Positions 6,832 through 64,000 of a stretch of 64,000 bases of DNA are shown here, one piece after another. Both the position numbers and the translations under genes were made by a program. Source of the stretch: Amoebidium appalachense (lineage: Eukaryota; Protista; Ichthyosporea); contig CAVNZM010000011.1 of assembly GCA_963693365.1 (NCBI GenBank), positions 7,551,437 through 7,615,436 on the forward strand, given 5' to 3'. The notes below the pieces were generated by a model that was not told the origin of the DNA, searched no databases, and saw only the letters and a program-made list of their open reading frames with translations. Numbering within the stretch: the first letter of the stretch is position 1; every line of letters starts with the position of its first letter.

Positions 6832-8180
6832 TGCCCGTGTTGGAGTACCACGGGCGAGGACTGAAAACTTGTCTGGGTGTGGTTCCAAGTCATGGTAGTA
6901 AAAAAAGGGGGCAGATAAGTCGAGAGTTTGCTGGATGCTCTCCTTGTTGGGGCCAAACCATGTTGTGTCGTCGGCGAAGGCTACACTGGCAGACGTCACA
7001 CACGTGTTTGTGCCGGTGTGTGGTGCTGTGTCTGTGGGGGTAGGTGGAAAGTGTCCCCCTTGCCGTGCCTTTTGATGGCTGTCAAAACTGGATCGTAGAA
7101 AATAATCCACAGAATGGGGGAGAGGACAGCCCCTTGGGCCAGGCCGTTTTCAACAGGGAAAGACTCAGTGTGCCCCTGGTCTGTGCACACCGTGGCCGTA
7201 CGATTGTGCCACATGTGCCGGAGGAGGGTGATTAGCTGGGGGTCGGTGCCCAGGCGGGTGAGCCCCAGTTCCACCGAGGGCCAAGACACCGTGTCATATG
7301 CCCTCTTAATGTCCTGTTGGACGATCCATAGTTCCTGGTCGTGGTCTATGGCATCATCTATCGTCTCTCGGATGATAGCCAGCGCCCCGTCGATACCCGG
7401 GCCCGGCACGAACCCGAAATTCCCCCCCGGGAGGAGGGTGGGGTGCTGCCGGAAGATCGAGAGTAGGCGCTGGTTGATGACCGATTCTAGCAGCTTCCGT
7501 GCCGTTTCCAAGAGTGCTATCGGTCGGGTTTTGTCGAAGTCACTTTCCCATTCCCCTTTCGGTAGGGGATGGATGGTGTGGTGCAGCCATGACCTCGGTG
7601 TGGTCCCCGTGGCCAGACATCCGTTGATGATATGTAGGAGCCGTGCTAGCCCTTTTGGCCCCAGGTGTTGGAAGTATTCGTACAGTAACTGGATTTCCGT
7701 TGGGCCGGGGGCCTTCCCTCCCTGTCGGCTTTGGACGATCTGTTGGAGCTCGTCGTGGGTGGCCGGGTGCATTATAGACCCTAATGGGGAGTCTTCGGGG
7801 GGGATCGGTCGATAGATGTCAGCCCACCTTGGGTCGGCGAGCATCTCCTCGATGTGTGGGTTCCTGCGGGCCGTCCTCCGGTGATAAGTTCCACGAATGA
7901 CGGTCTCCGTGTCAGCCCACTCCGTGAGGTACTCAGTGCCCGTTGTGGTGACGTGCTTGACTAACGTAGCCGAGACGTTCACACTCCCCCGGTCTAAAAT
8001 GCTGCTTAGTGCTCGCCGGAGTTCGTCCACCATACGCTTGCACCGTGCTTCTGCTGCTGCTGTTGCCCGTAGCCAAAGGAGTTTTTGCCGTTTCCTTCGG
8101 AGTTGGGACCTGTATAGTTGTAGTTGCTCCCGCATGGTTTCCTCCCACTCCTCCCACTGCCTCCCTGTCTGAGACAGGTG
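6559..8180 (-). pseudogene. Non-LTR reverse transcriptase domain, frameshifted near 7010
   Basis: GKAPGP, RPIALLE, QDIKRAYDTV and GLAQGAVLSP in one frame; catalytic FADDT in the next frame. Confidence 0.92.
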
Positions 8181-11100
8181 GGCTGCTGGGGGGGTGGGCG
8201 GGGTGCTGCTGCCGCGTGGGTAACCCGTGCCGTGCCTGCTGGCCAGGGCTGCACTCTGCTGCTGTGGGCCGTTGCGGCTGCGTGGGTGTGGTCTGTAGCT
8301 GTTGGTTGCCCGTGGGTGGCCCTGGCGGGGTCTGCAGGCGGGGTGGCCCCTGCATTGGCTGCCGGTGTGGGCTGCCTGCTTGGGCTTCAGCCTGCGGCTG
8401 CTGCTGCTGGCTTGGTTGCTCCTGTTGGTGCTGTCTGCTGGGTGGCCCGTGCTGGGCCTGCCGGCCGGGGCTGCAATCTGCTGCTGCATGCAGCTGCTGC
8501 AGTGTGGGTGTGATTTGTTGCTGCTGGCCGGGTGGCCTTGGCGGGGCCTACAGGCTGGGTGGCCCCTGCTGTGACTGCCGGTGTGGGCTGCCTGCTAGGG
8601 CTGCAGCCTGAGGCTGCTGCTGCTGGCTTGGTGGCTCCTGTTGGTACTGTCGGCTGGGGGGGCCGTGCTGGGCCGGCCGGCCGGGGCTGCACACTGCTGC
8701 TGCAGGCAGCTGCGGCAGTGTGGGTGGGGTCGGTTGCTGCTGGCTGGGTGGCCCCTGCTGTGGCTGCCGGTGTGGGCTGCCTGCTGGGGGTGCAACCTGA
8801 GGATGCTGCTGCCAGTGCTGGCTTGAAGGCTCCTGTTCGTGCTGTCGGCTGGGTGGCCCGTGCTGGGCCGGCCGGCCGGGGCTGCGATCTGCTGCCGCAG
8901 GCAGCTGGTGCAGTGGGGGTGTGGTCGGTTGCTGCTGGCTGGGTGGCCTTGGCGGGGCCTGCAGGCTGGGTGGCCCCTGCTGTGACTGCCGGTGTGGGCT
9001 GCCTGCTGGGGCTGCAGCCTGTGGCTGCTGCTGCTCGCTTGGTGGCACCTGTTTGTGCTGTCGGTTGGGTGGCCCGTGCTGGGCCGGCCGGCCGGGGCTG
9101 CAATCTGCTGCTGCAGGCAGCCACTGCAGTGTGGGTGTGGTCGTTTGCTGCTGGCTGGGTGACCCTGGCAGGGCCTGCAGGCTGGGTGGCCCCTGCTGTG
9201 GCTGCCGGTGTGGGCTGCCTGCTGAGGCTGCAGCCTGAGGCTGCTGCTGCTGACTGGGTGGCTCCTGTTGGTGCTGTCGGCTGGGTGGCCCGTGCTGGGC
9301 CTGCCGGCCGGAGCTGCCCGTCGCTGCTGCAGGCGGCTGCTGCAGTGTGGGTGTGGTCGGTTGTTGCTGGTTGGGTGGCCCTGGCAGGGCCTGCAGGCTG
9401 GGTGGCCCCTGCTGTGGCTGCCGTGGTGGGCTGCGTGCTGGGACTACAGCCTGAAGCTGCTGCTGCCAGCTGGGTGGCTCCTGCTGGTGCTGTCGGCTGG
9501 GTGACCCGTGCTGGGCCTGCCGGCCGGGGTTACCCTCCGCTTCTGCAGGCAGCTGCTGCAGTGTGGGTGTGGTCGGTTGCTGCCGGCCAGGTGGCCCTGG
9601 CAGGGCCTGCAGGCTGGGTGGCTCCTGCTGTGGCTGCCGGTGTGGGCTGCCTGCTGGGGCTGCAGCCCGAGGCTGCTGCTGCTGGTTTGGCGGCTCCTGT
9701 CGGTGCTGTCGGCTGGATGGCCCGTCCTGGGCCTACCGGCTGGGGTTGCAGTCTGCTAGCTGCTGCTGCTGCCGTGTGGGTGTGGTCGGTTGCTGCTGGC
9801 TGGGTTGTTCTGGCAGGGCCTGCAGGCTGGGTGGCCCCTGCTGTGGCTGCAGGTGTGGGCTGTCTGCTGGGGCTACAGCCTGAGGCTGCTGTTGCTGGCG
9901 GGGTGGCTCCTGTTGGTGCTGTCGGCTGGGTGGCCCGTGCTGGGCCTGCCGGCCGGGGCTGCACGCCGCCGCTGCAGGCAGCTGCTGCAGTGTGGGTGTG
10001 GTCGGTTGTTGCTGGCTGGGTGGCCCTGGCAGGGCCTGCAGGCTGGGTGGCCCCTGCTGTGGCTGCCGGTGAGGGCTGCCTGCTGGGGCTACAGCCTGCG
10101 GCGGCTGCTGCTGGCTTGGTGGCTCCTGTTGGTACTGTCGGCTGGGTGGCCCGTGCTGGGCCGGCCGGCCGGGGCTGCAATCTGCTGCTGCAGGCAGCTG
10201 CTGCAGTGTAGATGTGATCTGTTGCTGCTGGCTGGGTGGCCCATGCAGGGCCTTCAGGCTGGGTGGCCCCTGTTGTGGGCTGCTGGCGGGGGCTTCAGCC
10301 TGAGGCTGCTGTTGCTGGCTTGGTGGCTCCTGTTGGTGCTGTCGACTGGGTGGCCCATGCTGGTCCTGCCGGCCGGGGCTGCCTGCTGGGGCAGCGGCAG
10401 GCTGATGCAGCAAAGTGGGTGTGGGTTGGTGCTGCTGGGTGGGGCTGCAATCTGCTGCTGCAGGCAGCTGCTGCCGGGTGGGTGTGGTTTGTTGCTGCTG
10501 GTCGGGTGGCCCATGCAGGCCCTGCAGGCTGGGTGGCCCCTGCTGTGGCTGCCGGTGTGGGCTGCCTGCTAGGGCTGCAACCTGAGGCTGCTGCTGCTGG
10601 CTTGGTGGCTCCTGTTGGTACTGTCGGCTGGGTGGCCCGTGCTGGGCCGGCCGGCCGGGGCTGCAAACTGCTGCTGCAGGCAGCTGCTGCAGTGTGGGTG
10701 GGGTCGGTTGCTGCTGGTTGGGTGGCTCTGGCAGGGCCTGCAGGCTGGGTGGCCCCTGCTGTGGCTGCCGGTGTGGGCTGCCGGCAGGGTCTGCAGCCTG
10801 CGGCTGCTGCTGCTGGCTTGGTGGCTCCTGTTCGTGCTGTCGGCTGGGTGGCCCGTGCTGGGCCGTCCGGCCGGGGCTGCAATCTGCTGCCGCAGGCAGC
10901 TGGTGCAGTGTGGGTGTGGTCGGTTGCTGCTGGCTGGGTGGCCCTGGCGGGGCCTGCAGGCTGGGTGGCCCCTGCTGTGACTGCCGGTGTGGGCTGCCTG
11001 CTGGGGCTGCAGCCTGAGGCTGCTGCTGCTGGTTGGGTGGCTCCTGTTGGTTGGGTGGCCCGTGCTGGGCCTGCCGGCCGGGGCTGCACGCTGCTGCTGC

Positions 11101-39776: not shown

Positions 39777-40169
39777 TTGGGATATTCGGGTTGGTTGTAA
39801 GGTTTTCCGGGTCGGGCCGAAGGCCCTAACGGGCCGCAGGCCCGTCTATTGGGCCATAGGCCCTAGGCCTGGGGCCTGGGGCCCGGGGCGCCGGGGACCG
39901 GGGGGCCCGGCCCGGCCCGCGAGCCACCCCCCCCCCCCCGGCCCGGCCCGGCGGCCCGGGGTTAGCAAACTCTGCTAACCCCGGGCCGCCGGGCCGGGCC
40001 GGGGGGGGGGGTGGCTCGCGGGCCGGGCCGGGCCCCCCCGGTCCCCGGCGCCCCGGGCCCCAGGCCCCAGGCCCCAGGCCTAGGGCCTATGGCCCAATAG
40101 ACGGGCCTGCGGCTCGTTAGGGCCTTCGGCCCGACCCGGAAAACCTTACAACCAACCCGAATATCCCAA
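39777..40169. repeat. ~390-bp GC-rich palindrome (arms ~190 bp, loop AACTC at 39968-39972)
   Basis: The arms are reverse complements except for one substitution, one extra CAGGCCC unit and homopolymer length differences. Confidence 0.95.
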
Positions 40170-40726
40170 TATTGCTTCATTCTGATTGGTTGTCACACCA
40201 CGGGGTTTCCCGATTGTTCTTCGAATGACATTTGCTATCACTATCAGACAGTTCTCCAATATCAGAACAGAAAACGGTCTCTACCCAGATGGCCAGATGG
40301 CCAGGTCAAATTCAGTGTGTGGAAAAAGGTGGATAAAACGGGATAAAACGGTGAGCAAAATGATCTGGCCATCTGGCCATGTGGCCATGGAATCTCTATA
40401 TCTAAAAATAGCTGCCACTGCGCCGGGGCGTGGTTCCGGGAGGCAGGGGAGGCACGTGAGCACTCACTGGCCCTGCGCCGGGGCGTGGTTCCGGGAGGCA
40501 GGGGAGCAGGGGAGGCAGGGCGAGGCACGTGAGCACTCACTGGGGCCTGGTTCCGGGAGGCAGGGGAGCAGGGGAGCACTCAGTGTGTGGGTGTGCATAT
40601 GGCAGGGGAGCAGGGGGGCAGGGGGGCAGGGGGGCTGGGGAGCAGGGGAGACTGGCATGCCACTCACGGGGAGGATAGTGTATGTTGGCACGTGTGGGTG
40701 TGTGGGTGATAAAGGCAGAAGCCACA

Positions 40727-41701
40727 ACACGTGTGGTGTCTAAACAGCCTATAGGCATGCTCCGTGTGCAGGCACCAATTTCTACCCTCTTCTGGTTGGT
40801 GCCAAGAGGCAGCGCCCTACACGTGTGGTGTCTAAACAGCCTATAGGCATGCTCCGTGTGCAGGCACCAATTTCTACCCTCTTCTGGTTGGTGCCAAGAG
40901 GCAGCGCCCTACACGTGTGGTGTCTAAACAGCCTATAGGCATGCTCCGTGTGCAGGCACCAATTTCTACCCTCTTCTGGTTGGTGCCAAGAGGCAGCGCC
41001 CTACACGTGTGGTGTCTAAACAGCCTATAGGCATGCTCCGTGTGCAGGCACCAATTTCTACCCTCTTCTGGTTGGTGCCAAGAGGCAGCGCCCTACACGT
41101 GTGGTGTCTAAACAGCCTATAGGCATGCTCCGTGTGCAGGCACCAATTTCTACCCTCTTCTGGTTGGTGCCAAGAGGCAGCGCCCTACACGTGTGGTGTC
41201 TAAACAGCCTATAGGCATGCTCCGTGTGCAGGCACCAATTTCTACCCTCTTCTGGTTGGTGCCAAGAGGCAGCGCCCTACACGTGTGGTGTCTAAACAGC
41301 CTATAGGCATGCTCCGTGTGCAGGCACCAATTTCTACCCTCTTCTGGTTGGTGCCAAGAGGCAGCGCCCTACACGTGTGGTGTCTAAACAGCCTATAGGC
41401 ATGCTCCGTGTGCAGGCACCAATTTCTACCCTCTTCTGGTTGGTGCCAAGAGGCAGCGCCCTACACGTGTGGTGTCTAAACAGCCTATAGGCATGCTCCG
41501 TGTGCAGGCACCAATTTCTACCCTCTTCTGGTTGGTGCCAAGAGGCAGCGCCCTACACGTGTGGTGTCTAAACAGCCTATAGGCATGCTCCGTGTGCAGG
41601 CACCAATTTCTACCCTCTTCTGGTTGGTGCCAAGAGGCAGCGCCCTACACGTGTGGTGTCTAAACAGCCTATAGGCATGCTCCGTGTGCAGGCACCAATT
41701 T
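40727..41701. repeat. 92-bp perfect tandem repeat, ~10.6 copies
   Basis: TAAACAGCCT at 40741, 40833, 40925 and onward to 41661. The units appear identical. Confidence 0.97.
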
Positions 41702-41887
41702 GTTGTGCCTTCCTTTTTTGGTTAGATCTATACCCGGCCAATGGTTAGCAGCCACGGGTTTGTTTTCATCAAGCTTAGACGTGATACTTTGCCAACCATC
41801 AAGGCCGTTTGAGTGACAATGACCGTTGATTGGAGAGATCTATCCCATTGAGCCTTGGCACCATTGCTGTAAGCTGCTTTGTACCGT

Positions 41888-41900
41888 GGCATATAAAAGC
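41888..41900 (+). promoter_or_regulatory. TATA box GGCATATAAAAGC, with upstream CCAAT/ATTGG
   Basis: 95 bp upstream of ATG 41995. The same 13-mer precedes the convergent gene. Confidence 0.7.
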
Positions 41901-41994
41901 AGCACACACGGTCACATTCACTCATTTCAACACTGACACTCAATAGTAAAAGGCGACACACAACAAACTTGTTTTTCAAACACTCACACGAAAC

Positions 41995-43104
41995 ATGGAT
42001 TCTTGGAAAGAGGAGCTTCAACAGCTGCAGAAGCGCTTTGATTTTCTGTACACGGACCATTCGTCTCGCTTAACGGCCCTGCACACCGACGTCACCAGCC
42101 TCCGCACCGACCTCACCAGCCTCCGCAGTCAAGTGACCAATGAGAATGCTGCGCGTACCCCCCAACCCCCCCAACCCCAGCCCTCTGATGTAGAGGCACG
42201 ACTGAGGGCAGCCGAAGAGCAGATCAAGACCCTGCAGGCCGAGCTTGCCAGCCTGCAACGGGCTGCAGCACCCCACCGGGATGGCCAGGTGGCCTATGAA
42301 AACTACATTTTCAGTGGCCCTTGCAAGACTACCCCTGTGGCCATGACCACCACTGTGACTGCCCCCACCCCTGCCGCCAAGACCGCCCCTGTGACTGCCC
42401 CCACCCCTGCCGCCAAGACCGCCCCTGTGACTGCCCCCACCCCTGCCGCCAAGACCGCCCCTGCCAAGACCACCCCTACCACCAAGACCACTCCTGCCAA
42501 GACCACCCCTACCACCAAGACCACTCCTGCCAAGACCACCCCTACCACCAAGACCACTCCTGCCAAGACCACCCCTGCCGCTAAGCCCAGGCCCAAGCAC
42601 ACCAAAACACCTGAGACTTCGTTGCATGACCATACGATGGACCTCGATGCACAGCTAACTAGTGTGAGGGGGGAGCTCCAGAATGCTCGAGAGCGTGTCA
42701 AAGAGGCAAAGGCGGCTGAAGATGAAATGGCGGAGGGCCTGGCCATTGCTGCTGTGTGTGCAGCCCAAAACACCATAAAAAGCATCCGAAGGAAGATTCT
42801 GCGACGGGAGAAGAACTTGAAGGCATACACAGGTGGTAATGAGTCTGTCTCTTCACCTGCCTCACCCGCCAAACGCGTCCATGATCAATGCGATTGGGAC
42901 TCAGATGAAGCATTCAACCCCAAGCGGCTCAAACGACGGGCAAATCAGGTACTCGATGATATGACAGATGACGAATCTGCGTCTGATCGTGAGTCGGTCG
43001 TGTATGACCGCAAACCTGAACCCAAACATAAACAAACTGAAGAAATTCCCCTCATTGATCTTGACCAGGAAGAGTTTGACCAGTATGAGCATGAGATGTA
43101 CTGA
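41995..43104 (+). CDS. Coiled-coil protein with central TAPTPAAK/KTTP repeats and a basic/acidic tail, 369 aa
   Basis: TATA box, AAACATGG start context, heptad pattern and in-frame repeats. Confidence 0.8.
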   Translation: MDSWKEELQQLQKRFDFLYTDHSSRLTALHTDVTSLRTDLTSLRSQVTNENAARTPQPPQPQPSDVEARLRAAEEQIKTLQAELASLQRAAAPHRDGQVAYENYIFSGPCKTTPVAMTTTVTAPTPAAKTAPVTAPTPAAKTAPVTAPTPAAKTAPAKTTPTTKTTPAKTTPTTKTTPAKTTPTTKTTPAKTTPAAKPRPKHTKTPETSLHDHTMDLDAQLTSVRGELQNARERVKEAKAAEDEMAEGLAIAAVCAAQNTIKSIRRKILRREKNLKAYTGGNESVSSPASPAKRVHDQCDWDSDEAFNPKRLKRRANQVLDDMTDDESASDRESVVYDRKPEPKHKQTEEIPLIDLDQEEFDQYEHEMY

Positions 43105-43506
43105 TTTGATTGGTCGACTAAGTGGCATTCTCTTTTGATTTGTATTTGAATTGATCGGTCTTGATTTATTTGTTTCTTTTCTCTTTTAGTTTGTATTTGA
43201 ATATACTCGGTCCAAGTTGATTTGTTCTTTGTAATCTGACTAGACTATCATGTACGTACTTACTCTTTTTCTATACAATCACTTGTGTTCATATTAAAGG
43301 ATTCTGTGTACGTGGACCACGGAAACATACACCATTTTTTGCAGTGCTTCATGCTATAAAATAACCATGAGAGACACAAACAAATACACTAAGTGTGTAC
43401 ACGTCTACCCATAGGCCCAAGTGTTGACATGTCTGCCCACAGTTCCCTAAGGCTTAAAGCACACATCTGCCTGTATGCCATAAACTTTACTTTCACCACA
43501 AGACAC

Positions 43507-44652
43507 CCACCTAAGTACACGTCTGCACCACCCTAAGTACACTGTGGTGCACAGCCCCACCCTAAGTACACTCTGCACCACCCTAAGTAACCCTAAGTAC
43601 ACTCTGCACCACCCTAAGTACACTCTGCACCACCCTAAGTACACGTCTGCACCACCCTAAGTACACGTCTGCACCACCCTAAGTAGACCTCTGCACCACC
43701 CTAAGTACACGTCTGCACCACCCTAAGTACACTCTGCACCACCCTAAGTACACCTCTGCACCACCCTAAGTACACGTCTGCACCACCCTAAGTACACGTC
43801 TGCACCACCCTAAGTACACCTCTGCACCACCCTAAGTACACGTCTGCACCACCCTAAGTACACGTCTGCACCACCCTAAGTAGACCTCTGCACCACCCTA
43901 AGTACACGTCTGCACCACCCTAAGTAGACCTCTGCACCACCCTAAGTAGACCTCTGCACCACCCTAAGTACACGTCTGCACCACCCTAAGTAGACCTCTG
44001 CACCACCCTAAGTACACGTCTGCACCACCCTAAGTAGACCTCTGCACCACCCTAAGTACACGTCTGCACCACCCTAAGTAGACCTCTGCACCACCCTAAG
44101 TACACGTCTGCACCACCCTAAGTACACGTCTGCACCACCCTAAGTAGACCTCTGCACCACCCTAAGTACACGTCTGCACCACCCTAAGTAGACCTCTGCA
44201 CCACCCTAAGTACACGTCTGCACCACCCTAAGTACACGTCTGCACCACCCTAAGTAGACCTCTGCACCACCCTAAGTACACGTCTGCACCACCCTAAGTA
44301 GACCTCTGCACCACCCTAAGTACACGTCTGCACCACCCTAAGTACACGTCTGCACCACCCTAAGTACACGTCTGCACCACCCTAAGTAGACCTCTGCACC
44401 ACCCTAAGTACACGTCTGCACCACCCTAAGTAGACCTCTGCACCACCCTAAGTACACCTCTGCACCACCCTAAGTACACGTCTGCACCACCCTAAGTACA
44501 CCACCCTAAGTACACGTCTGCACCACCCTAAGTAGACCTCTGCACCACCCTAAGTACACGTCTGCACCACCCTAAGTACACCTCTGCACAGCCCTAAGTA
44601 CACCTCTGCACCACCCTAAGTACACTCTGCACAGCCCCACCCTAAGTACACT
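43507..44652. repeat. 22-bp tandem array (~50 copies), each unit containing CCCTAA
   Basis: CTGCACCACCCTAAGTA[C/G]AC[G/C]T repeated. Confidence 0.97.
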
Positions 44653-44730
44653 CAATGTTAAGTACATCTGCACACAAGCACTAGAATAGCCTGAGGCTAC
44701 TCTCTAATAGCGGCCCCTTTTTTCACCGTG

Positions 44731-45582
44731 TCAAGGCCAGTTGATATATTCGTCTGAAGACTCGGAAGACGCCCCAGAGCTGCTGGCTTCACTGGCTCGT
44801 GCCCTTTTCTGCTGTCCCCGTGTCAAGGTCTTGGACTCGGAAGACGAGTGCTCCTCAGAAGACGAGTACTCCTCAGGTCCCCATATCAAGGTCTTGAACC
44901 AAGGAGGCACTTCCTCCTGTACCGCCGACCCAGAGCTTCTGACTTCCTCTCGTGTCCTCTTCTGCTGTCTTGGTGGTTTCTCCCGTGTCTTGGACCCCTG
45001 TGTGAAGGTCTTCCAGTTGAAATAAGGAGGCACTGGAGAATGGTGCTCCTCCTCCGACCCAGAGCTTCTGACTTCCTCTCGTGTCCTCTTCTGCTGTCTT
45101 CGTGGTTTCTCCCGTGTCTTGGACCCCTGTGTGGTGTGCAAACGTGAGCGCTGCAGGGGCAGGGGGGCCAAGTCCACGGGATAGGAGCTGCCATGCTCGC
45201 CAGCACGAAGTGCAGGTGCCGCTGCCAGGACAGGGGGTGCCACGGTTGCTGCTGGGGGTGCCACGGTTGCTGCTGGGGGTGCCACGGTTGCTGCTGGGCG
45301 TGCCACGGTTGCTGCTGGGCGTGCCACGGTTGCTGCTGGGCGTGCCACGGTTGCTGCTGGGGGTGCCACGGTTGCTGCTGGGGGTGCCACGGTTGCTGCT
45401 GGGGGTGCCACGGTTGCTGCTGTAGTGGTGCGCTTGCTTAAAGCCATGCGGGCGTGCCTAGCAAGGGCGCACGCGAAACGGGTCTGGGTGTCCCGCAGGT
45501 CCTTTGCATCCCGCTCCAAAGTCTTGAGTCTTGTCTCTATTTTTTCAGCGCGCCTTTCTAGATCTTTGATGTTAATACTCAT
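44731..45582 (-). CDS. Coiled-coil protein with (AATVAPP)n and Ser/Arg/Lys-rich duplicated segments
   Basis: ATG at 45582, 84 bp downstream of a TATA box. In-frame 21-bp repeats and an ~80-bp internal duplication. Confidence 0.75.
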   Translation of the reverse strand: MSINIKDLERRAEKIETRLKTLERDAKDLRDTQTRFACALARHARMALSKRTTTAATVAPPAATVAPPAATVAPPAATVARPAATVARPAATVARPAATVAPPAATVAPPAATVAPPVLAAAPALRAGEHGSSYPVDLAPLPLQRSRLHTTQGSKTREKPRRQQKRTREEVRSSGSEEEHHSPVPPYFNWKTFTQGSKTREKPPRQQKRTREEVRSSGSAVQEEVPPWFKTLIWGPEEYSSSEEHSSSESKTLTRGQQKRARASEASSSGASSESSDEYINWP

Positions 45583-45665
45583 TTTCGTGACAGTTGGATG
45601 TACGTTGTGTGCCAAGGGAGAAGCTAGCTAACATGGAAAAGGTGTGTGGATTGAAGAGAGTATGG

Positions 45666-45678
45666 GCTTTTATATGCC
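45666..45678 (-). promoter_or_regulatory. TATA box GGCATATAAAAGC, with several CCAAT boxes upstream (45716-45782)
   Basis: Exact reverse complement of 41888-41900. Confidence 0.7.
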
Positions 45679-46529
45679 GTGCCCGGCTTTGGCATCAGAT
45701 GCTTTATTGCATTAGATTGGTTGGATATACCCCAGCCGCGACGCTTGATTGGATCTAGAGATCGCGTGAATATCTGATTGGCTAATTGTCATTTGGGCAT
45801 CTTGGTGTATCCGATAAGTTGGGGCTCAACCAAATCTGCTGACTGATTGATGAATTCTGATTGGATCAACAAGAGCATGTTTTGACTTGAGAATTGTCAT
45901 TTGACAGATTGGATTGTAATCCGATCTTTGCAACTTGGCCGTCAGTGTTTGAACACAATGTATTTTGATGTAGCAACTCCTAAAAAAACACGAATATGCT
46001 TCCCAACAATTACGAGCATTATTCTGTCTATCAGGGATACAAAAATTGGTCAGGAAAAGTACACAATCACATGGTGCTGACTGCTTGAACACGATGTCAA
46101 CTGATAGCGAATCGGTGCACTGCCTGCTGGGAACAACATGTCACTTTTTGAGCAGCACTTAGGAAACTCGCGCTCACGTGGATCCAATACTTATACACCA
46201 ACCAGAAGTGTGCGCACAAAAAGGGGTCCGAGCTGGATACAAATGGCTTGGTGTGTGTGTGTGTGTGTTTTATTTTGCACTGTGTAAGGAGCGCTTTTTT
46301 TTGTTCACACTGCTTTACTTTGTAAATAATCAGTGGCGAGTTTTTTTAGTTCACGGTGTGTTTGCGCATCATAGGATTTTGCTTTATTTTGCATTGTGTA
46401 AGAGGAACGTTTTTTTTTGGGTCACACTTTTGCTTCGTAAAAATAAGAGGGACGTTTTTTTTGTTCACACTGCTTTGCTTCGTGGATAAAAACTAAACAC
46501 CTCCTGCCCAACCGGCTGCAAACGACACA

Positions 46530-46892
46530 ATGGATGAAAGTTTAACAGTCACACAGCGCCAAGATGCACACACCGAGCAGCTGCAAGAGACCAACAAGAT
46601 GCTGAAGGAGGCCAACGAGGGGCTGCACGGGCTGATCCAGCAGCTGAGGGAGTTGAACAACGACATGGACAAGGACAACGACGCGCTGCGCACAATGAAC
46701 AAGAACCAGCGGGAGGTGATCAAGGGCCTGCAAGAGGAGCGCAACAAGGTGTGCGAAGAGAACAAGAATTTGGTGGTGGAGAACCAAGAGCTGCAGCTGG
46801 AAAACGACAAGCTGAAGAAGCAAAAGGACTTTCTACGGGCCTGTCTCATACGGCTGGGCCAGTCCGCTAAGACTCCGGATGAAACGGATTGA
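46530..46892 (+). CDS. Small coiled-coil protein, 120 aa
   Basis: Continuous heptads, strong GC3 bias and CACAATGG start context. Confidence 0.75.
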   Translation: MDESLTVTQRQDAHTEQLQETNKMLKEANEGLHGLIQQLRELNNDMDKDNDALRTMNKNQREVIKGLQEERNKVCEENKNLVVENQELQLENDKLKKQKDFLRACLIRLGQSAKTPDETD

Positions 46893-46950
46893 TACAATCA
46901 TGAGGGATAACACTTGCGAGTGATTTCATTCTGTTACTTAGTATGTATTA

Positions 46951-47252
46951 ACGTCTAAGCTTGATGAAAACAAACCCGTGGCTGCTAACCATTGGCCGGG
47001 TATAGATCTAACCAAAAAAGGAAGGCACAACAAATTAGTGCCCTGCACACGGAGCATGCCTATAGGCTGTTTAGACACCACACGTGTAGAGCACTGCCTC
47101 TTGGCACCAACCAGAAGAGGGTAGAAATCAGTGCCCTGCACACAGAGCATGCCTATAGGCTGTTTAGACACCACACGTGTAGGGCACTGCCTCTTGGCAC
47201 CAACCAGAAGAGGGTAGAAATCAGTGCCCTGCACACGGGGCATGCCTATAGG
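46951..47252. repeat. Inverted copy of ~41480-41781 (80-bp unique segment plus ~2.4 diverged 92/93-bp units)
   Basis: ACGTCTAAGCTTGATGAAAACAAACCC... is the reverse complement of the sequence just after the 92-bp array. Confidence 0.92.
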
Positions 47253-47929
47253 CAGTGATGGGGTGAGTAGGATGAGTAGCTTGAGTACCTACTCATCTGG
47301 TCTCCCCCCGGGTGTTCCAATTTCCTTTTGGATTGAGATTTAGGTATACCCGTAGCCCACAGTAGATGAGTACGTACTCATCCTACTCATCCTACTCACT
47401 ATATGACAATTGCATATTTTTATACCTAAAAAGGAAACCTTTACCATATTTGGGTGAGTAACATCTAGTGGGGGAAACTTGTCTGTGTTACTCAGAATGA
47501 GTACCCTGAGTAAGATATTGTTACTCATGAAACAAATAAAAAACCATAAAATTTTATGCTCAGAGTAACTTGAATTACTCAGGGCAAAGGAAAACGTTGG
47601 CTTTTTTATGCCTTAACCTCAACGATAACAGATTCTCGTGGGTGGAAGCGCAACTGGCCGGAGTGTGGACGGAACTTCAGGCAGAAGGCTCACTTGGAAA
47701 CCCATCTGCGAAAACACACAGGCGCCCTGTTCAAATGTGATTATCCGGAGTGTTCAGCTGCATATACAACCCCAGCTTCGTTGTCAACACACATGTGGAA
47801 ACACAAGTCAGAAAAACCCTTTATTTGCAGCGATTGTGGCAAGGAATTTATACATCCAAGTTCATATCGTGTGCATCAGAGATCGCATTCTGGCGGGAAC
47901 TCTTTCAGATGTGATTATATGGGATGCAG

Positions 47930-48110
47930 ATACAGTTGAACCTACCATCCTTTCCTAAACTTGCCAACATGACCACGGGTCATGAAAGGAGCTAGGCTAG
48001 TGGCATGGTCATGCAAGATTACAAGAACCTTGGCCTATACCGGCAGAGGCCCGTGGCTGCCCACGGGCCGCGTACATGAGCGAATAAATATGTTGCGAGC
48101 CCCATTGACA
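47930..48110 (-). ncRNA. Predicted omegaRNA scaffold at the IS607 right end
   Basis: Expected position for a TnpB/Fanzor guide RNA. Hairpins GGCCCGTGG..CCACGGGCC (48048-48069) and CATGACC..GGTCATG (47968-47984). Boundaries are inferred. Confidence 0.55.
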
Positions 48111-49987
48111 TCTCTGTCAATGACCAACCCACAATGTTTACACTTGAACACCTTAGAACCTCCAAGACCCTGGTTGATCTGTCCACACCTCCCACACGTT
48201 TTGCTGGTGTAGGATTCATTGACAAACACCACTGCAGTTCCCCGTTGCTCTGCTTTACACACCAGCCGTTGTCGAAACTTGGCATGCTGCCAACCCATCA
48301 TGCATCGGACGCTCTTGCTGCGAAGTTTCCTCTTGCCCCTACGTGACATACTCCCAGAGTCAAACCAAGGAATAACTACCACGTCGAAGTTGGAGGTGAG
48401 CCATCCAGCGGCCTTCCAGTGTGCGTCGGCAATAAGGTTCTGAACCCTTCGGCGCATTCGGAACAGGGCCTTTCTCATCCGATACCGACTTTTGTGTTTA
48501 ACAGATGTCTGTGTCAAACGACTTTTCAGCTGGTCCTCACGGTTGAGCAGCCGACTGATGCGTTTGATGTCCCCGGGAAAAAGGTGTGTGACCTCCTTGT
48601 TACAGGGGTCATAGACAGTCTGGAAGGTTCTAATACCAGGATCAAGTGCACATATCCGCCTATCGTGTTGTTCGGTTAGAGGGGTTTGGCTATCACCCCC
48701 CGGTACCCGATATGTAATTGATAGGTAGAAATGCCCGTCCCTGGTCATCAAGAGCCGCCCATCTGTTTCCATTTCACCCGGTTGTACTTGCTCCGCAAGT
48801 TTCAAATGCCCACCTTCGGGGCACATCGTTGGGGCAAAAATGGCGTGTGTACCATTGAACTTGGTGAGTGCGCGGGGTATTAGAATTGATTGATATCCGT
48901 CCTTTTTGGATCTATACCGGACAAAGACACTGGTTGCCTTTAAACCCCTCTTCTTAGCATAACGTGCCTTTGCCTTCTGCGAACCCACGGCCCCGAAAAA
49001 ATCATCCACCGCGCCGTTACGAAAAAGGTTTGGCACACGCTTCTTGTATTCTTCGCAGTCTGGAATGCTTTTGTTGTTGACAAATTGCTTGCGATATTCG
49101 GTTTTGTCCATGCTTCCCTTCAGGTCGTGAAGACCTACACATTGATTGAAGATCTTCCTTGCCACTCCGAAGCATTCGACCAACCATCGCTTTTGTTCCT
49201 TTGTTGGGATCACACGGATGAGTTTTGTGCGGACCAAAAGCTCGGTCCTTTCCCGCAAAGCCAAAACGTTCACTCCACAGGCCACATAATCGTCAAGCTC
49301 CGGAGGCCGTCCATTAAGACGATCCTTCAAATAGAGTTTCTGCTCTTTCTTCATGTGTTTCGATGCCATGCGCTTTAGTCTTTTGACGTTCCTTTCCGCT
49401 TCCCTCTGTTCCATTGCACTTGTTTCCGTACTTGCGACGTCCATGATGCTTACAGACAAAGTGGGTGGTGACGGCGATAAGGTCTTCCGCGAGTTCATCT
49501 GTATTGGACTCGTCTGCGTGATTGAGAACCACGATTTTGACCCCATATGCTTCCAGAATCCACCACAGCAGGTCACCGGCGAGTTGACACAGCCTGTCAT
49601 TGTGGGCAACCACAATCTCTCTGACATTTCCCTTGCTTGCCTGTTCCAAAATGGACAGCAGTCCTCTGCGCTTAAAGTTGACGCCACTCCCGACATCAGT
49701 GACAATTTCGTGATTGGGACACCGTTCACGCAGATACTGAACTTGCCGGTCGAGGTCCGTGCGCTGTTTGTGGGATGAGACCCGTGCGTAGGCAACATCA
49801 ACTCTGTCTGTTCGTGTGTCCGTTTCACACCCGAGCAACGTGTCAATGTCCGAGGTGTTGTACAGGCGGACATTGCCTGGTGTTCTAACAATTCGGATGC
49901 GTCCCTGGTTTGCCCATCTCCGAAGTGAGGATCCCGATACCCCGTACTTCTTTCTGGATTGAAGTCCAGATATGTACTTGGTGCCAT
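48035..49987 (-). CDS. tnpB: Fanzor2/IS607 TnpB RNA-guided nuclease (start uncertain)
   Basis: RuvC-I ALDPGIRTF, VVIP in place of the canonical Glu, shifted Glu in VNESYTSKTCGRCG, and CKHC...DRDVNGARNI. N-terminal FWN..LWLPT..SWF segment. Confidence 0.93.
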   Translation of the reverse strand: MAPSTYLDFNPERSTGYRDPHFGDGQTRDASELLEHQAMSACTTPRTLTRCSGVKRTHEQTELMLPTHGSHPTNSARTSTGKFSICVNGVPITKLSLMSGVASTLSAEDCCPFWNRQAREMSERLWLPTMTGCVNSPVTCCGGFWKHMGSKSWFSITQTSPIQMNSRKTLSPSPPTLSVSIMDVASTETSAMEQREAERNVKRLKRMASKHMKKEQKLYLKDRLNGRPPELDDYVACGVNVLALRERTELLVRTKLIRVIPTKEQKRWLVECFGVARKIFNQCVGLHDLKGSMDKTEYRKQFVNNKSIPDCEEYKKRVPNLFRNGAVDDFFGAVGSQKAKARYAKKRGLKATSVFVRYRSKKDGYQSILIPRALTKFNGTHAIFAPTMCPEGGHLKLAEQVQPGEMETDGRLLMTRDGHFYLSITYRVPGGDSQTPLTEQHDRRICALDPGIRTFQTVYDPCNKEVTHLFPGDIKRISRLLNREDQLKSRLTQTSVKHKSRYRMRKALFRMRRRVQNLIADAHWKAAGWLTSNFDVVVIPWFDSGSMSRRGKRKLRSKSVRCMMGWQHAKFRQRLVCKAEQRGTAVVFVNESYTSKTCGRCGQINQGLGGSKVFKCKHCGLVIDRDVNGARNIFIRSCTRPVGSHGPLPV

Positions 49988-49997
49988 TGTGGGGCAT
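49314..49997 (-). CDS. tnpA: IS607 serine recombinase TnpA (MerR-like HTH plus resolvase)
   Basis: SLRRW..G HTH, YARVSS..Q..DLDRQ, DVGSGVNFKRRGL, DRL and ELAEDL motifs. Confidence 0.95.
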   Translation of the reverse strand: MPHNGTKYISGLQSRKKYGVSGSSLRRWANQGRIRIVRTPGNVRLYNTSDIDTLLGCETDTRTDRVDVAYARVSSHKQRTDLDRQVQYLRERCPNHEIVTDVGSGVNFKRRGLLSILEQASKGNVREIVVAHNDRLCQLAGDLLWWILEAYGVKIVVLNHADESNTDELAEDLIAVTTHFVCKHHGRRKYGNKCNGTEGSGKERQKTKAHGIETHEERAETLFEGSS

Positions 49998-50384
49998 ACT
50001 ATAAGGTATAGAAAATATTTGAAGTTGCCCAACATTGGCAGTTTCAGATAACAAGAATAAGTGTGCCCTTTGTGACACTTGCAGTGGGTTGTTGTTGTTG
50101 CCTTTTACAACCACCGCTCTGGACACAAGATCGAACAGCTATCAAATTGACCATATATATGACAAAGAAAAACAAGGTTGCCAAAGATCATTGTAGCAGC
50201 AAATCATACCGGCACAAGGCCAGTTTGACCGTCCACCAAAGAGTGCACACGGGCGTAAGACCATATTCCTGCCATATCTGCGCTGCCACTTTTCATACTC
50301 GATCCTCGTGGAGTCATCACGAGCGAGCACACAGACAATTGGTCGAAACAAGCAAAGTTGTGGATGGCATTCCACAAAATTTTA

Positions 50385-50530
50385 CCCTTACGTGCTATGT
50401 AGGTGGCACAGGTCTTGCGGAACTCGTGGGCGCGCTTCCCAGGGAGTAGGTAGATGATCTCGAGGAGGTCACGGAATGAAGCCACTGGGGTGAGCTTCCC
50501 CACTCCATTGATGCGAAGTGGGCCTCGCGG
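50385..50530 (-). pseudogene. Fragment of a viral-type DNA-binding domain (Bro-N/KilA-N-like)
   Basis: LRINGVGKLTPVA..LEIIYLLPGKRAHEFR resembles a segment I recall from large DNA virus proteins. Truncated. Confidence 0.55.
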
Positions 50531-50695
50531 GCGAGAAGGGTGGGGGGGGATCATTTCTCTGAAAAATAAACAAATTTGTGTGCGCACACACAAGCATGCG
50601 CTCGGACGACACGTTGGGTGTGGCCCTGCTTATATACGCGTGCTGCACCATCCGGGGCGCAGTCGCACACACACACGCACTGCGCGATACCTGCA

Positions 50696-51214
50696 TTATT
50701 CTCTACACTGCCGCCTATTTTTCTGTACTGATTCATATAACTGCAGCGACAGAATGTCGCACCCCATGTCATGCCAAAGGAAGTCCTTCAAAAAGTCGAT
50801 TCGCAGAAGGGTTGTTCGTTTTCTCTTTGCCTCCATGGGGACCGCACGTCCCTCGCTCATGCCCTCCTCCTCCGTCGGATCCCTCGGTGGCAGCAGCGAC
50901 AGCGTGGTGTCCCAGCGCTCCCAGGTCAGCCGAAACGACTTGCCCCAATCCAGGTCGATGGTCACCGCATCCCCGGCCCCCTCCAGCGGACACGTCGAAA
51001 ACACAAGGTGGTTGAGTCCAGTCCTGTTCGACGTTTCCACCGACTGCAGCGGCAGCATCGTGTCCGACAGCATCGTGTCGCCCCTGCCGAGTCTTGCGTG
51101 GAGCTGTAGCGGCCGGCTTGCCACCCTCCCGGCGCCGTTCGAGTCGAACGTCATGTTGGATACAAGCAGCGACAGCCGATTGACAAATAGCTTCAGGTCC
51201 TGCTCAAAAGCCAT
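50696..51214 (-). CDS. Hypothetical protein
   Basis: ATG at 51214 (ACCATGG), ~50 bp downstream of GGTATAAAAGC (51265-51275). Confidence 0.6.
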   Translation of the reverse strand: MAFEQDLKLFVNRLSLLVSNMTFDSNGAGRVASRPLQLHARLGRGDTMLSDTMLPLQSVETSNRTGLNHLVFSTCPLEGAGDAVTIDLDWGKSFRLTWERWDTTLSLLPPRDPTEEEGMSEGRAVPMEAKRKRTTLLRIDFLKDFLWHDMGCDILSLQLYESVQKNRRQCRE

Positions 51215-51764
51215 GGTCGGTTCTGGTGCAGATTCAGACTGGCAGCTCCCCGTGTCAGACACACGCTTTTATACCCTCCAGAGTCCCCGCCTGCGTCGGC
51301 GCACACTCATTCGCAAGGTGCCAGTTCTCGAGGCGCTGCATGACCACGAGTGCGCGCTTGCGTGTTTCGGCGTGTGTGTACGTGGGCCCGAATCGGAGTG
51401 TGAGGTGCTGAGCGTGCGCTGTTGCACAAGCATGTGGACCGCAGGTGTGCGACCGGGAGACATTGTGGTGGCGTGCGAGATCAAGCGCGCAGAATCAGGG
51501 TGGCGCAAGGTGTCCCTCGAGCTCGAGGAGGGTGCGTGGACCAGCAACCTGTGCGCGGCTGGGTGCAAGCGGAGAAAGTGGTTTCACAGGGGTTGTGCAG
51601 GGCAAGCGCCCAAAATTTTGGGGTAGAGGTCATGCCAAAACAAGGAGGTCAGTCCAAAAAGAGGGGTCACAGACGTGCAAGGAAGTACGTGTTTGCCAAC
51701 GAGTTCATGCCAAAATACAGGAGACTGGTGCTCCGCCAGAGCGTGCGAGTGAAGCGTAAATGAG

Positions 51765-61943: not shown

Positions 61944-62935
61944 CCCGGCCCATATCCACCTGCGCGTTCACCACCCTGTTCTCCTGCCCCCGCCCCCTAC
62001 CCAGTCCACCGATTTCTCCACAAACCAGAGAGAACACGGCAGTGCCCATGAACGTTTGGCCCGCATTTTGCTAGAGAACAGCATCGCCGGTCCCCCCCAT
62101 GTCTCCCGGAACCCAAGAGAACACCATGGCATCCCCAACCATGTCTCCCGGATCCTTGGAGAACAGGTGCTGGGGGTGGACCCTGTTCGCCGATTGCTTT
62201 TTCCTAGGAGCGGGGCCTGGGGGGCATGAGGGGCACGCGAGGCACGCGATGGCACAGTGGTCTCACGGGTCTGTGTGCCACAGGCGCCCCCCCAGCCCCC
62301 CCCCAGGCCCCCGGAACAGGCAACGCGGAACCACAACTTCGTTCCAAAGCAGCGCCAGATGTGCCAATAAACGGCCAAAGCAGCGCGCAGTTGGCTACCC
62401 CGCTATTCGATCTGATTGGTCGAAAGCGTTCAAGATCCTGACCAAGGTTTCAGAATCTGTTTGTATCGTTGATAGGACTATTTCTTCGCGATTTCTGTTT
62501 GAAATGTGACCGAATTGTTTATAAAACTATCTTGAATATGAAATTAGGTATAAAACGTTTGATTTTATTCTTATGTTTGGTTCTAAGGAATAGAAGAGAA
62601 AAAGGCATCAGCTGTCATTGAAAAATCTTGAAGCACTGGCATTGCCTGCTCTTCGCGGGATCTGATTGGATCTTGAATTGGGTGTGATCCAATCCCCAGC
62701 AGCCAATCGTGCAGTTTGGTGATCTGGATCTGAAAGCATTCTCCCAATCAAACGCGTGACTGGATATCATTTCGTCAGCATCAGTTGGGAATTGGCTTCT
62801 AAGGGCACGGCACAGCTGATAGGGTGTCACTTTCACACACCTTCTGTAGTGTCAACATCAAAGGCTTTGAAGTCGCTTGTTAGGTCGCCTTTTACTGATT
62901 TTCGCTTTGCACCCCCATTTCTACACACACACACC

Positions 62936-63799
62936 ATGGAACAAGTAGGCAAGCGCAGCTACAAATGGCTGACCGATCACCTTTTCACTAAGAACACTTA
63001 GGACAAATACATGGTCAAGTGCCGCGCTTGTGTCGCTGACATGCACAGCGACCAGATCCCCTCGCATGTGAAGGTGTGCAGGGAATTAAACCACTGCCAG
63101 GACGCCATCCTTACCCTCGTCGCCGCAGAGAACGCCGTCGGGCCCGCGCGCGACAAGGTGCGTCCGTTGGTCACGGAGTTCGGGGGGTGCGCAGTGGCTG
63201 CACAGTCCGTCGTGCCGGGTCTGCGCCAGTACCTGCAGCAGCCTGGGCGCAACGTCGTGGGCGCGGCTAAGGCACGGGCGGTGGCGCAGGCGCTCCACGA
63301 CATGGCAGAGGCGGCTCGGGCGGTTAAGGACGGGTATGTGGGTTTTTGGTCGGCTGAGGATGCTGTGGAGCGCAACAAGCAAGCGCTGCGCCATCGGATT
63401 GCCGAACGTGTCCACCGCCGCCAGGGCGGGGAGGGGCCCGGCCAGTTCGCCTACGTTCCCCGCCCCCCCGGTTCTCCCCGTCCAAACCTCCTCCCCTTTG
63501 CGCTCACACCCGGGGAGCTTGCAAGTGGCAACGTGCTCCGGCAGTGCGAGATATTTCTGTTTGATCGAGTGCAGAGGGATCCGAAGTACCCTCCCGGGAA
63601 ACGTATCGACTCGGACGATGTGTGGGGGGCGGAGGAGAGAGACTCTGCTCTTGCGGCATCGATCGATGAGTGGGCGGTGGAGGTTCCCGTTTGGTGGGAT
63701 GAGGGCAACCACTATTTTGTTCAGGACATGGAGATGATTGAGCAGCGCCTGCGGGAGGGGTATGATTGGGTGATGAAGGTTGTTGCGGAGCTTGAGTGA
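62936..63799 (+). CDS. Hypothetical protein, with ATG 62936 in frame but a TAG at 62999-63001 (open from 63011)
   Basis: CACCATGG context at 62936, upstream CCAAT-rich region and a long high-GC3 ORF. Confidence 0.65.
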
Positions 63800-63819
63800 G
63801 GGCTGGGGGGGGGGGGGTT

Positions 63820-63920
63820 GATGGGGTGGTGTTAGCATGAGCTAGATGGGGGTTGGTTTAATGGGATGGTGTTAGCATGAGCTAGATGGGGGTTGGTTTG
63901 ATGGGATGGTGTTAGCATGG
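63820..63920. repeat. ~40-bp tandem repeat, ~2.5 copies
   Basis: GGTGTTAGCATGAGCTAGATGGGGGTTGGTTT repeated. Confidence 0.8.
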
Positions 63921-64000
63921 GAGGGCTTGGAAGTTGTTTGATGTGCTTCCGGGAGAAGTTCATGCACGAAATAAACCAAGCATCTGTGTATCATGCTGCT

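Follow-up and report, generated by a model that had tools for sequence, protein, structure and literature searches.

Background

Fanzor nucleases have been characterised in vitro and in human cells, and their role in their own hosts is left open in the accessible text of the sources (PMC10530073, PMC10432273), to which statements about published systems refer throughout. IS607EU denotes eukaryotic IS607-type elements with a Fanzor2 and a serine recombinase, and IS607 elements are said to integrate strictly at GG (PMC13565253). The open reading frames (ORFs) of IS607 overlap in general (PMC3673617, PMC6188088). Here we describe an IS607-type element with a Fanzor2 gene from Amoebidium appalachense, in a stretch of 64,000 nucleotides (nt) (contig CAVNZM010000011.1, positions 7,551,437 to 7,615,436), called the window below and numbered from its first letter. 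We read it as a mobile IS607-type transposon whose recombinase probably inserts it into CTG sites and whose Fanzor2 is predicted to cut the vacant site, and assign this reading a probability of about 0.68.

ApmFz2 (ApmFNuc), the nuclease of a mimivirus IS607 element, likewise combines tnpA and Fanzor2 genes, a DPG motif, a shifted Glu, an N-terminal domain and the same fold (structure 9b0l; PMC11832414, PMC10530073). The two nucleases are 22% identical, and ApmFz2 reads a GGG target-adjacent motif (TAM), whereas the present element has a CTG junction and a predicted RCTG TAM (R, purine) (PMC11832414). The omegaRNA of ApmFz2 is 247 nt long, while only 108 nt lie here between the stop codon and the element end (PMC11832414). 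ApmFz2 resides in mimivirus and the present copy within a virus-like stretch of a repeat-rich genome. The bacterial IS607 elements CboIStron and ISXfa1 also have a serine recombinase and a scarless, one-core empty site that the nuclease is expected to cut, but their core is GG, whereas CTG stands at every junction seen here (PMC10690162, PMC10711439). In CboIStron the TAM and the target of the recombinase coincide (TGGG), the core closes the scaffold, and a single base immediately before the core sets the right junction, TCGG, apart and keeps it from being cut (PMC10690162); ISXfa1 behaves likewise, the core being part of its scaffold (PMC10711439). Unlike these bacterial elements, the present element encodes a Fanzor-type active site and a protein that groups apart from the cyanobacterial clade. 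NlovFz2 (TAM CCG) and MmeFz2 (TAM TAG) are also eukaryotic Fanzor2 proteins with TAMs other than GGG; their loci, as described in the accessible text, have no clear transposase, whereas the recombinase here is intact and both filled and empty sites are seen (PMC10432273). The element fits the IS607EU definition and the sequence and structure tests for a Fanzor2, and falls outside canonical IS607, with its GG core, although it works in the same manner. A literature search, with most subscription papers, Repbase and nearly all supplements outside its reach, found no natural non-GG eukaryotic IS607.

Ends of the element and its empty allele

The locus carries an IS607-type element with a Fanzor2; the element is intact and polymorphic for insertion (Table 1). 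A preliminary description, made from the sequence alone, had proposed such an element with two open frames, and this is borne out: tnpA and the Fanzor frame (50035-48035) are both open on the minus strand, and domains, residues, tree and fold agree. Public runs that cover the window wholly or partly number 20, with no RNA run listed among them, and contigs were compared from four of them (X7, X4, X16 and X20). In three of the four (X7, X4 and X16, with three study codes), contigs join 47925 directly to 50196, the joint of an empty zinc-finger allele that skips exactly 2270 of the element's 2273 bp. The allele that the preliminary description had reconstructed by deleting 2270 bp is therefore present in sequenced material. 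In run X20, the flanks of the element were not covered. Because a 2270-bp deletion leaves the zinc-finger frame intact at many registers, the ends cannot be fixed from the frame alone, and the joint leaves four letters ambiguous between the sides, namely GCAG, present at 47926-47929 and again at 50196-50199.

Alignment of other copies, put forward in the preliminary description as the way to fix the ends, narrowed the junction further. Among the loose ends of other element copies that were listed (22 of 69 rows), all seven at the right end match the element at least to 47927 and lie at 47923 or 47927, and the two at the left end break off at 50199 and 50200. The loose ends at 47927 and 50199/50200 therefore leave CAG, CTG on the element strand, as the only letters common to both junctions. 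The ends of the element are fixed at this GCAG/CTG junction, and we hold this as practically certain.

A second target, empty in the window and 4.9 kb from the element, is filled by another copy in run X4, where the left-end flank of that copy is identical to window 55111-55137 (27/27 exact, chance 0.00), directly after the CAG at 55108-55110. Two further element flanks from the runs had no match anywhere in the window. Some copies across the runs are near-identical (e.g., 3 differences in 681 bp) and others diverged. Self-comparison of the window showed neither the element nor its ends a second time, and viral contigs searched by nuclease, right-end pattern and TnpA held no close copy; metagenome contigs contributed only seven related loci, all distant (31-37%).

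A short motif, TTG(G)GCAA, lies near both ends in the same orientation (47960-47970, 50020-50030 and 50178-50185) and offers candidate TnpA binding sites. The right-end class that extends over 47923-47926 is possibly a variant with an extra 6-bp unit.

Table 1 Coordinates of the element, its parts and its surroundings in the window
Feature	Position	Strand	Basis or remark
IS607-type element, including both CTG junction triplets	47927..50199	-	2273 bp; empty-allele joint and loose ends of other copies
Left-junction CTG	50197..50199	-	Contains the probable recombination core; single CTG at empty site
Right-junction CTG	47927..47929	-	Element right end ...TGTATCTG
Second target, empty CTG in the window	55108..55110	-	Filled by another element copy in run X4
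tnpA	49314..49997	-	227 aa; N-terminal MerR-like helix-turn-helix and serine-recombinase domain
Fanzor2 ORF	48035..49987	-	650 aa from ATG 10 nt past tnpA start
Folded Fanzor2 N-terminal domain, from residue 110	49314..49660	-	+1 frame inside tnpA
Predicted omegaRNA region (scaffold and guide)	47907..48130	-	Fold of right end
Predicted 20-nt guide (right flank)	47907..47926	-	Predicted; unique in window
Predicted TAM GCTG at empty site	50197..50200	-	Predicted; consensus RCTG from three left junctions
C2H2 zinc-finger gene, left part	47625..47926	+	Pfam zf-C2H2 E 8.5e-14
C2H2 zinc-finger gene, right part	50200..50449	+	Pfam zf-H2C2_2 E 1.1e-05
Virus-like host region	40170..64000	.	Short ORFs, D5-like primase-helicase, patatin, Fic, several C2H2 genes

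The Fanzor2 nuclease and the nested recombinase gene

Counted from its first ATG, the Fanzor frame encodes 666 aa. The D/E/D RuvC residues seen in the preliminary description are D449 in DPG, E591 and D626 in RDVN, accompanied by a C4 zinc finger, and they are invariant, as is G451, across an alignment of 91 sequences made up of the window protein and 90 proteins picked from the best 120 of 584 homologs. Six residues separate E591 from the first zinc-finger Cys (C598), which is the Ealt arrangement of Fanzors. The DPG motif in RuvC-I is the mark of a Fanzor2 (PMC10711439), and the protein combines it with the shifted Glu, the RuvC-III Asp after it, and a predicted compact TnpB-like fold with an N-terminal domain. 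The structure model built from the alignment reached a predicted local distance difference test score of 75.7, compared to only 38.8 for a single-sequence model, and its top structural match is the mimivirus Fanzor2 9b0l (Foldseek E 6.5e-24; Z 24.9, root-mean-square deviation 4.3, 419 residues aligned), with model residues 110-643 aligned to chain residues 53-518. The N-terminal domain of ApmFz2 begins at residue 53 (PMC11832414), and since the aligned range reaches that residue, the predicted fold includes the N-terminal domain. A nuclease start at 49369 was rejected as too short, the folded N-terminal domain being encoded upstream of it.

In a midpoint-rooted FastTree phylogeny of 118 of 151 candidates, kept after removal of short or duplicate cores and drawn in part from 66 of the 120 listed homologs, the protein has a long branch and falls within a clade of 45 tips (support 0.945), together with a Phalansterium transcript (EukProt) and three loci from giant-virus metagenome-assembled genomes (MAGs), while a separate 56-tip clade (0.937) contains the four cyanobacterial proteins. 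With this rooting, the Fanzor2 groups with eukaryotic and eukaryote-virus members and not with prokaryotic pro-Fanzors. The closest homologs, among the best 120 of 584, are 39-41% identical. The preliminary claim of a new RNA-guided nuclease thus stands for the protein, a new member of its family, but not for the kind, as Fanzor2 nucleases are already characterised. We predict with good confidence that this Fanzor2 is an active RNA-guided nuclease.

The product of tnpA matches Pfam Resolvase (E 7e-18), with weak MerR matches, and has its catalytic Ser74 in YARVSS (codon at 49778). A serine recombinase with an N-terminal helix-turn-helix, encoded upstream of and overlapping the nuclease, is the IS607EU organisation. 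The overlap is extensive, as tnpA lies wholly within the Fanzor frame, which is +1 relative to it; this +1 frame is stop-free across tnpA, an outcome reached in 2/20000 and 39/20000 trials of two synonymous nulls. Among 86 related loci surveyed, 59 had a tnpA match, 46 of these a whole-looking tnpA, and 40 remained as non-duplicates. The +1 nested arrangement was found in 40/40 of them, with at least 60% of tnpA covered in all 40 and at least 85% in 33. A eukaryotic adaptation for leaky scanning was considered as the origin of the overlap and rejected, because 27 of the 40 relatives belong to the cyanobacterial clade; the nested overlap is no eukaryotic invention and, judged from these sequences, is striking yet clade-wide. 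Nothing on overprinting of TnpB and a transposase was found in the literature search.

Target site, predicted TAM and guide

Three left junctions are known, which on the element strand are TTTG-CTG (window), CGCA-CTG (second site) and CACG-CTG (the copy in X20); the right junction reads TGTAT-CTG. The junctions and the two empty sites share CTG, and the GG of canonical IS607 is absent from the junction. Because other copies and the empty site at 55108-55110 share only CTG, we place the recombination core within CTG rather than in a GG, a departure from the strict-GG integration statement for IS607 (PMC13565253). Non-GG cores apparently exist elsewhere in the clade. Two relatives (L072:1435-3251 and L080:886-2702) have what appears to be a non-GG core, with a right end ...ACCG and GCG at the left junction, and a third (L035, to about 3136) ends in ...TGCA, again with an apparently non-GG core.

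A bare CTG as TAM would expose the element's own right junction to cutting, so the base before CTG must discriminate, and two combinations result, a TAM RCTG with core TG and a TAM RCT with core CT. In 18 relative loci, whose right ends were placed by eye at the point of pairwise divergence, the end reads ATCGG in 11, ACCG in three, AGCGG in two, and ATCAG and TGCA in one each, and the TG core is favoured because the present right end, ATCTG, aligns letter for letter with the clade's ATCGG. It is probable on this analysis that the TAM contains CT(G), and the odds that it is exactly RCTG would be about even. The preliminary description had sought the TAM inside minus-strand CCGGTATGATTTG, where it probably does not lie, the CTG at 50199-50197 starting just beyond that stretch, which shares only its final G with RCTG. 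Its proposal that the guide matches the empty zinc-finger allele held up, in that the 20 nt of right flank predicted to supply it are identical in the empty alleles. The predicted guide begins CATCCCATAT, and the differences between the window and the empty alleles (47627, 47649, 47724, 47846, 50520, 50542 and 50568) all fall outside the target.

Predicted omegaRNA and short derivatives

The right end between 47910 and 48075 folds at -60.5 kcal/mol (z -2.57), with 1/200 shuffles equally good, and Rfam gave no match over 47850-48300. In X20, X7 and X4, a loose end at 48004 leads into a diverged copy of 48007-48027 followed by nine letters equal to 50187-50195 (by eye). This sequence suggests a derivative of ~110 bp that would hold almost the whole non-coding right end together with ~13 bp of the left end. 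Fanzor 'ghost' loci are short derivatives too, with the right-end RNA region but no ORF (PMC10432273), whereas the ~110-bp derivative here is deduced from one loose end in three runs. Summed contig depth is highest over the right end (10086 in X7 versus ~1000 in the body), a depth that is no copy number.

Proposed mechanism and alternatives

From the CTG junction seen in the contigs, we predict the TAM, the use of the guide and homing as follows. TnpA, as a serine recombinase, would move the element as a circle into CTG sites, recombining within CTG and most likely at TG. The omegaRNA scaffold would terminate in the right-end CTG, with the guide starting at 47926, and the Fanzor2 would read a 5' TAM, most likely RCTG. 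The empty zinc-finger allele, with GCTG and a perfect 20-nt match, would then be cut, and the filled site would be spared because its right junction reads TCTG. Repair templated by a filled copy would bring the element back (homing), in the way demonstrated for bacterial IS607 TnpB.

Several observations weigh against this reading or parts of it. Only three left junctions are known, and a purine before CTG in all three has a chance of ~11%, given that a purine precedes 461/962 CTGs in the region and T precedes 26%; the discriminating base therefore rests mainly on the avoidance of self-cutting. Characterised Fanzor2 TAMs are 3 nt long, not 4, in the accessible text (PMC11832414, PMC13565253). 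Target and right end differ at -3 in 6 of 10 relative loci inspected at both ends by eye (four left ends could not be settled), while RCTG requires a difference at -4. The match continues for four letters past the right-end CTG, to 47923, at three or more other loci. The 3' end of the right end has no clear pseudoknot partner, whereas the ApmFz2 scaffold has a pseudoknot at positions -4 to 0 (PMC11832414); because the same search gave none in the relatives, we regard it as uninformative. None of the four runs compared showed the filled junctions of the window, and as contigs drop rare variants this is no evidence.

The most serious alternative is a shift by one base, with a CT core, a scaffold ending in ...UAUCU, a 3-nt TAM RCT and a guide that starts with the G preferred by TnpA. 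The junction data are compatible with CT as well as TG, and a 3-nt TAM discriminating at -3 would agree with ApmFz2, ISXfa1, CboTnpB and six of the relative loci. The alignment of the clade's ATCGG to ATCTG, however, places the core at TG, and a G stands at every right junction listed, as expected of a core base, so that we give the shift a substantial but clearly minor share of the probability. It is less likely, though still worth considering, that TnpA moves the element while the Fanzor2 does not cut in the host, being silenced, without a working omegaRNA, or limited to binding. Empty alleles with a perfect predicted target occur in three runs that also carry element copies (with other guides), the fold signal is modest and the pseudoknot search was negative, all of which would suit such an inactive nuclease. 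On the other hand, the protein has kept its C4 finger and all three catalytic residues, the overlapping frame is held open against chance, and the short derivative appears to retain nearly the entire non-coding right end.

Another reading takes the CTG not for a recombination core but for a target-site duplication with a constant length of 3 bp, left by a cut-and-paste transposase supplied in trans, as for Fanzor2* elements. It would give the same picture of one CTG when empty and two when filled, and the scarless empty site with its single GCAG would look alike in either case. Terminal inverted repeat transposons have captured Fanzor2s (PMC10711439). This explanation is nevertheless improbable, as the element encodes an intact serine recombinase, relatives share the one-core pattern with GG or CG, and a search for self-matches between the element ends gave no long or terminal inverted repeat. 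The preliminary description had left two registers for the ends; the GCAG register is that of the empty-allele joint in three runs, and the other, with a right end ...GGTTCA at 47937/50206 and the TAM in CCGGTATGATTTG, has a probability close to nil. A 2270-bp deletion in that register keeps the zinc-finger frame too, but the joint found in the three runs lies between 47925 and 50196, and the match of other copies to the element continues through 47927.

Returning to the reading of recombination into CTG with cutting of the vacant site, we tentatively extend it, at odds well below even, to a currently mobile family in which recombinase and nuclease both switched from GG to CTG, with RCTG discriminated from TCTG, homing among copies of an endogenous virus, and ~110-bp guide-only minis powered by the full element. 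If this were so, the base by which the CTG family distinguishes empty and filled sites would lie one position further out than in any characterised Fanzor2, and the family would provide a natural eukaryotic system for watching Fanzor homing at known filled and empty alleles. Recombinase, nuclease, filled site and matching empty allele are all in sequenced material, and since filled and empty alleles exist, Fanzor homing can be tested in its own host. The predicted TAM lies outside the set of GGG, CCG and TAG known for Fanzor2 from the accessible text (PMC11832414, PMC10432273) and would modestly widen the targeting of compact editors.

The interrupted zinc-finger gene and the surrounding region

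The zinc-finger gene of the window is damaged beyond the insertion itself, as its first finger lacks the first Cys and no in-frame start precedes that finger. At both damaged places the window departs from the empty alleles, so the decay of this copy probably dates from about the time of insertion or later. Contig joints 47517->50659 and 47607->50570 in three runs, and likewise the imperfect inverted repeat at 47263-47399, hint at a location of the zinc-finger gene itself inside another element with short deletion derivatives (47240-47610, 50570-50700).

We take 40170..64000 to be a virus-like region, probably endogenous in a eukaryote, that extends past the window end. Its patatin has a sole viral-contig relative, at 44%, in the giant-virus MAG contig L167, which shares no other gene with the region. 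The D5-like helicase has close relatives, the viral ones being distant only. Of the genes that would mark a Polinton-like virus or an endogenous giant-virus element, a major capsid protein, packaging ATPase, polymerase and integrase were not found among the scanned ORFs of the region within the window, and the ESM Atlas returned nothing usable for two of its ORFs. At 51765-52941, a protein has Cys/His 'C.HG' repeats and no Pfam match, and a separate ORF behind it encodes an endonuclease-like tail; the protein is similar to genes known from large DNA viruses.

At the left edge of the region, 39777-40169 forms a near-perfect 390-bp GC-rich palindrome (127-nt arms, 95% complementary) with further pairing inside, which could be a hairpin end or an origin. 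Arrays of a 92-bp unit in opposite orientation (40635-41782 and 46951-47240), foldback-like, flank ~5.2 kb that include a 22-bp satellite (43601-44600) and coiled-coil ORFs. Microsatellites and satellites are abundant in the left 39 kb of the window, which also contain a reverse transcriptase, and an 871-bp inverted repeat (3561-4431/5961-6831, 98% complementary, with 1.5 kb between the arms) lies beside the reverse transcriptase ORF at 6996-8489.

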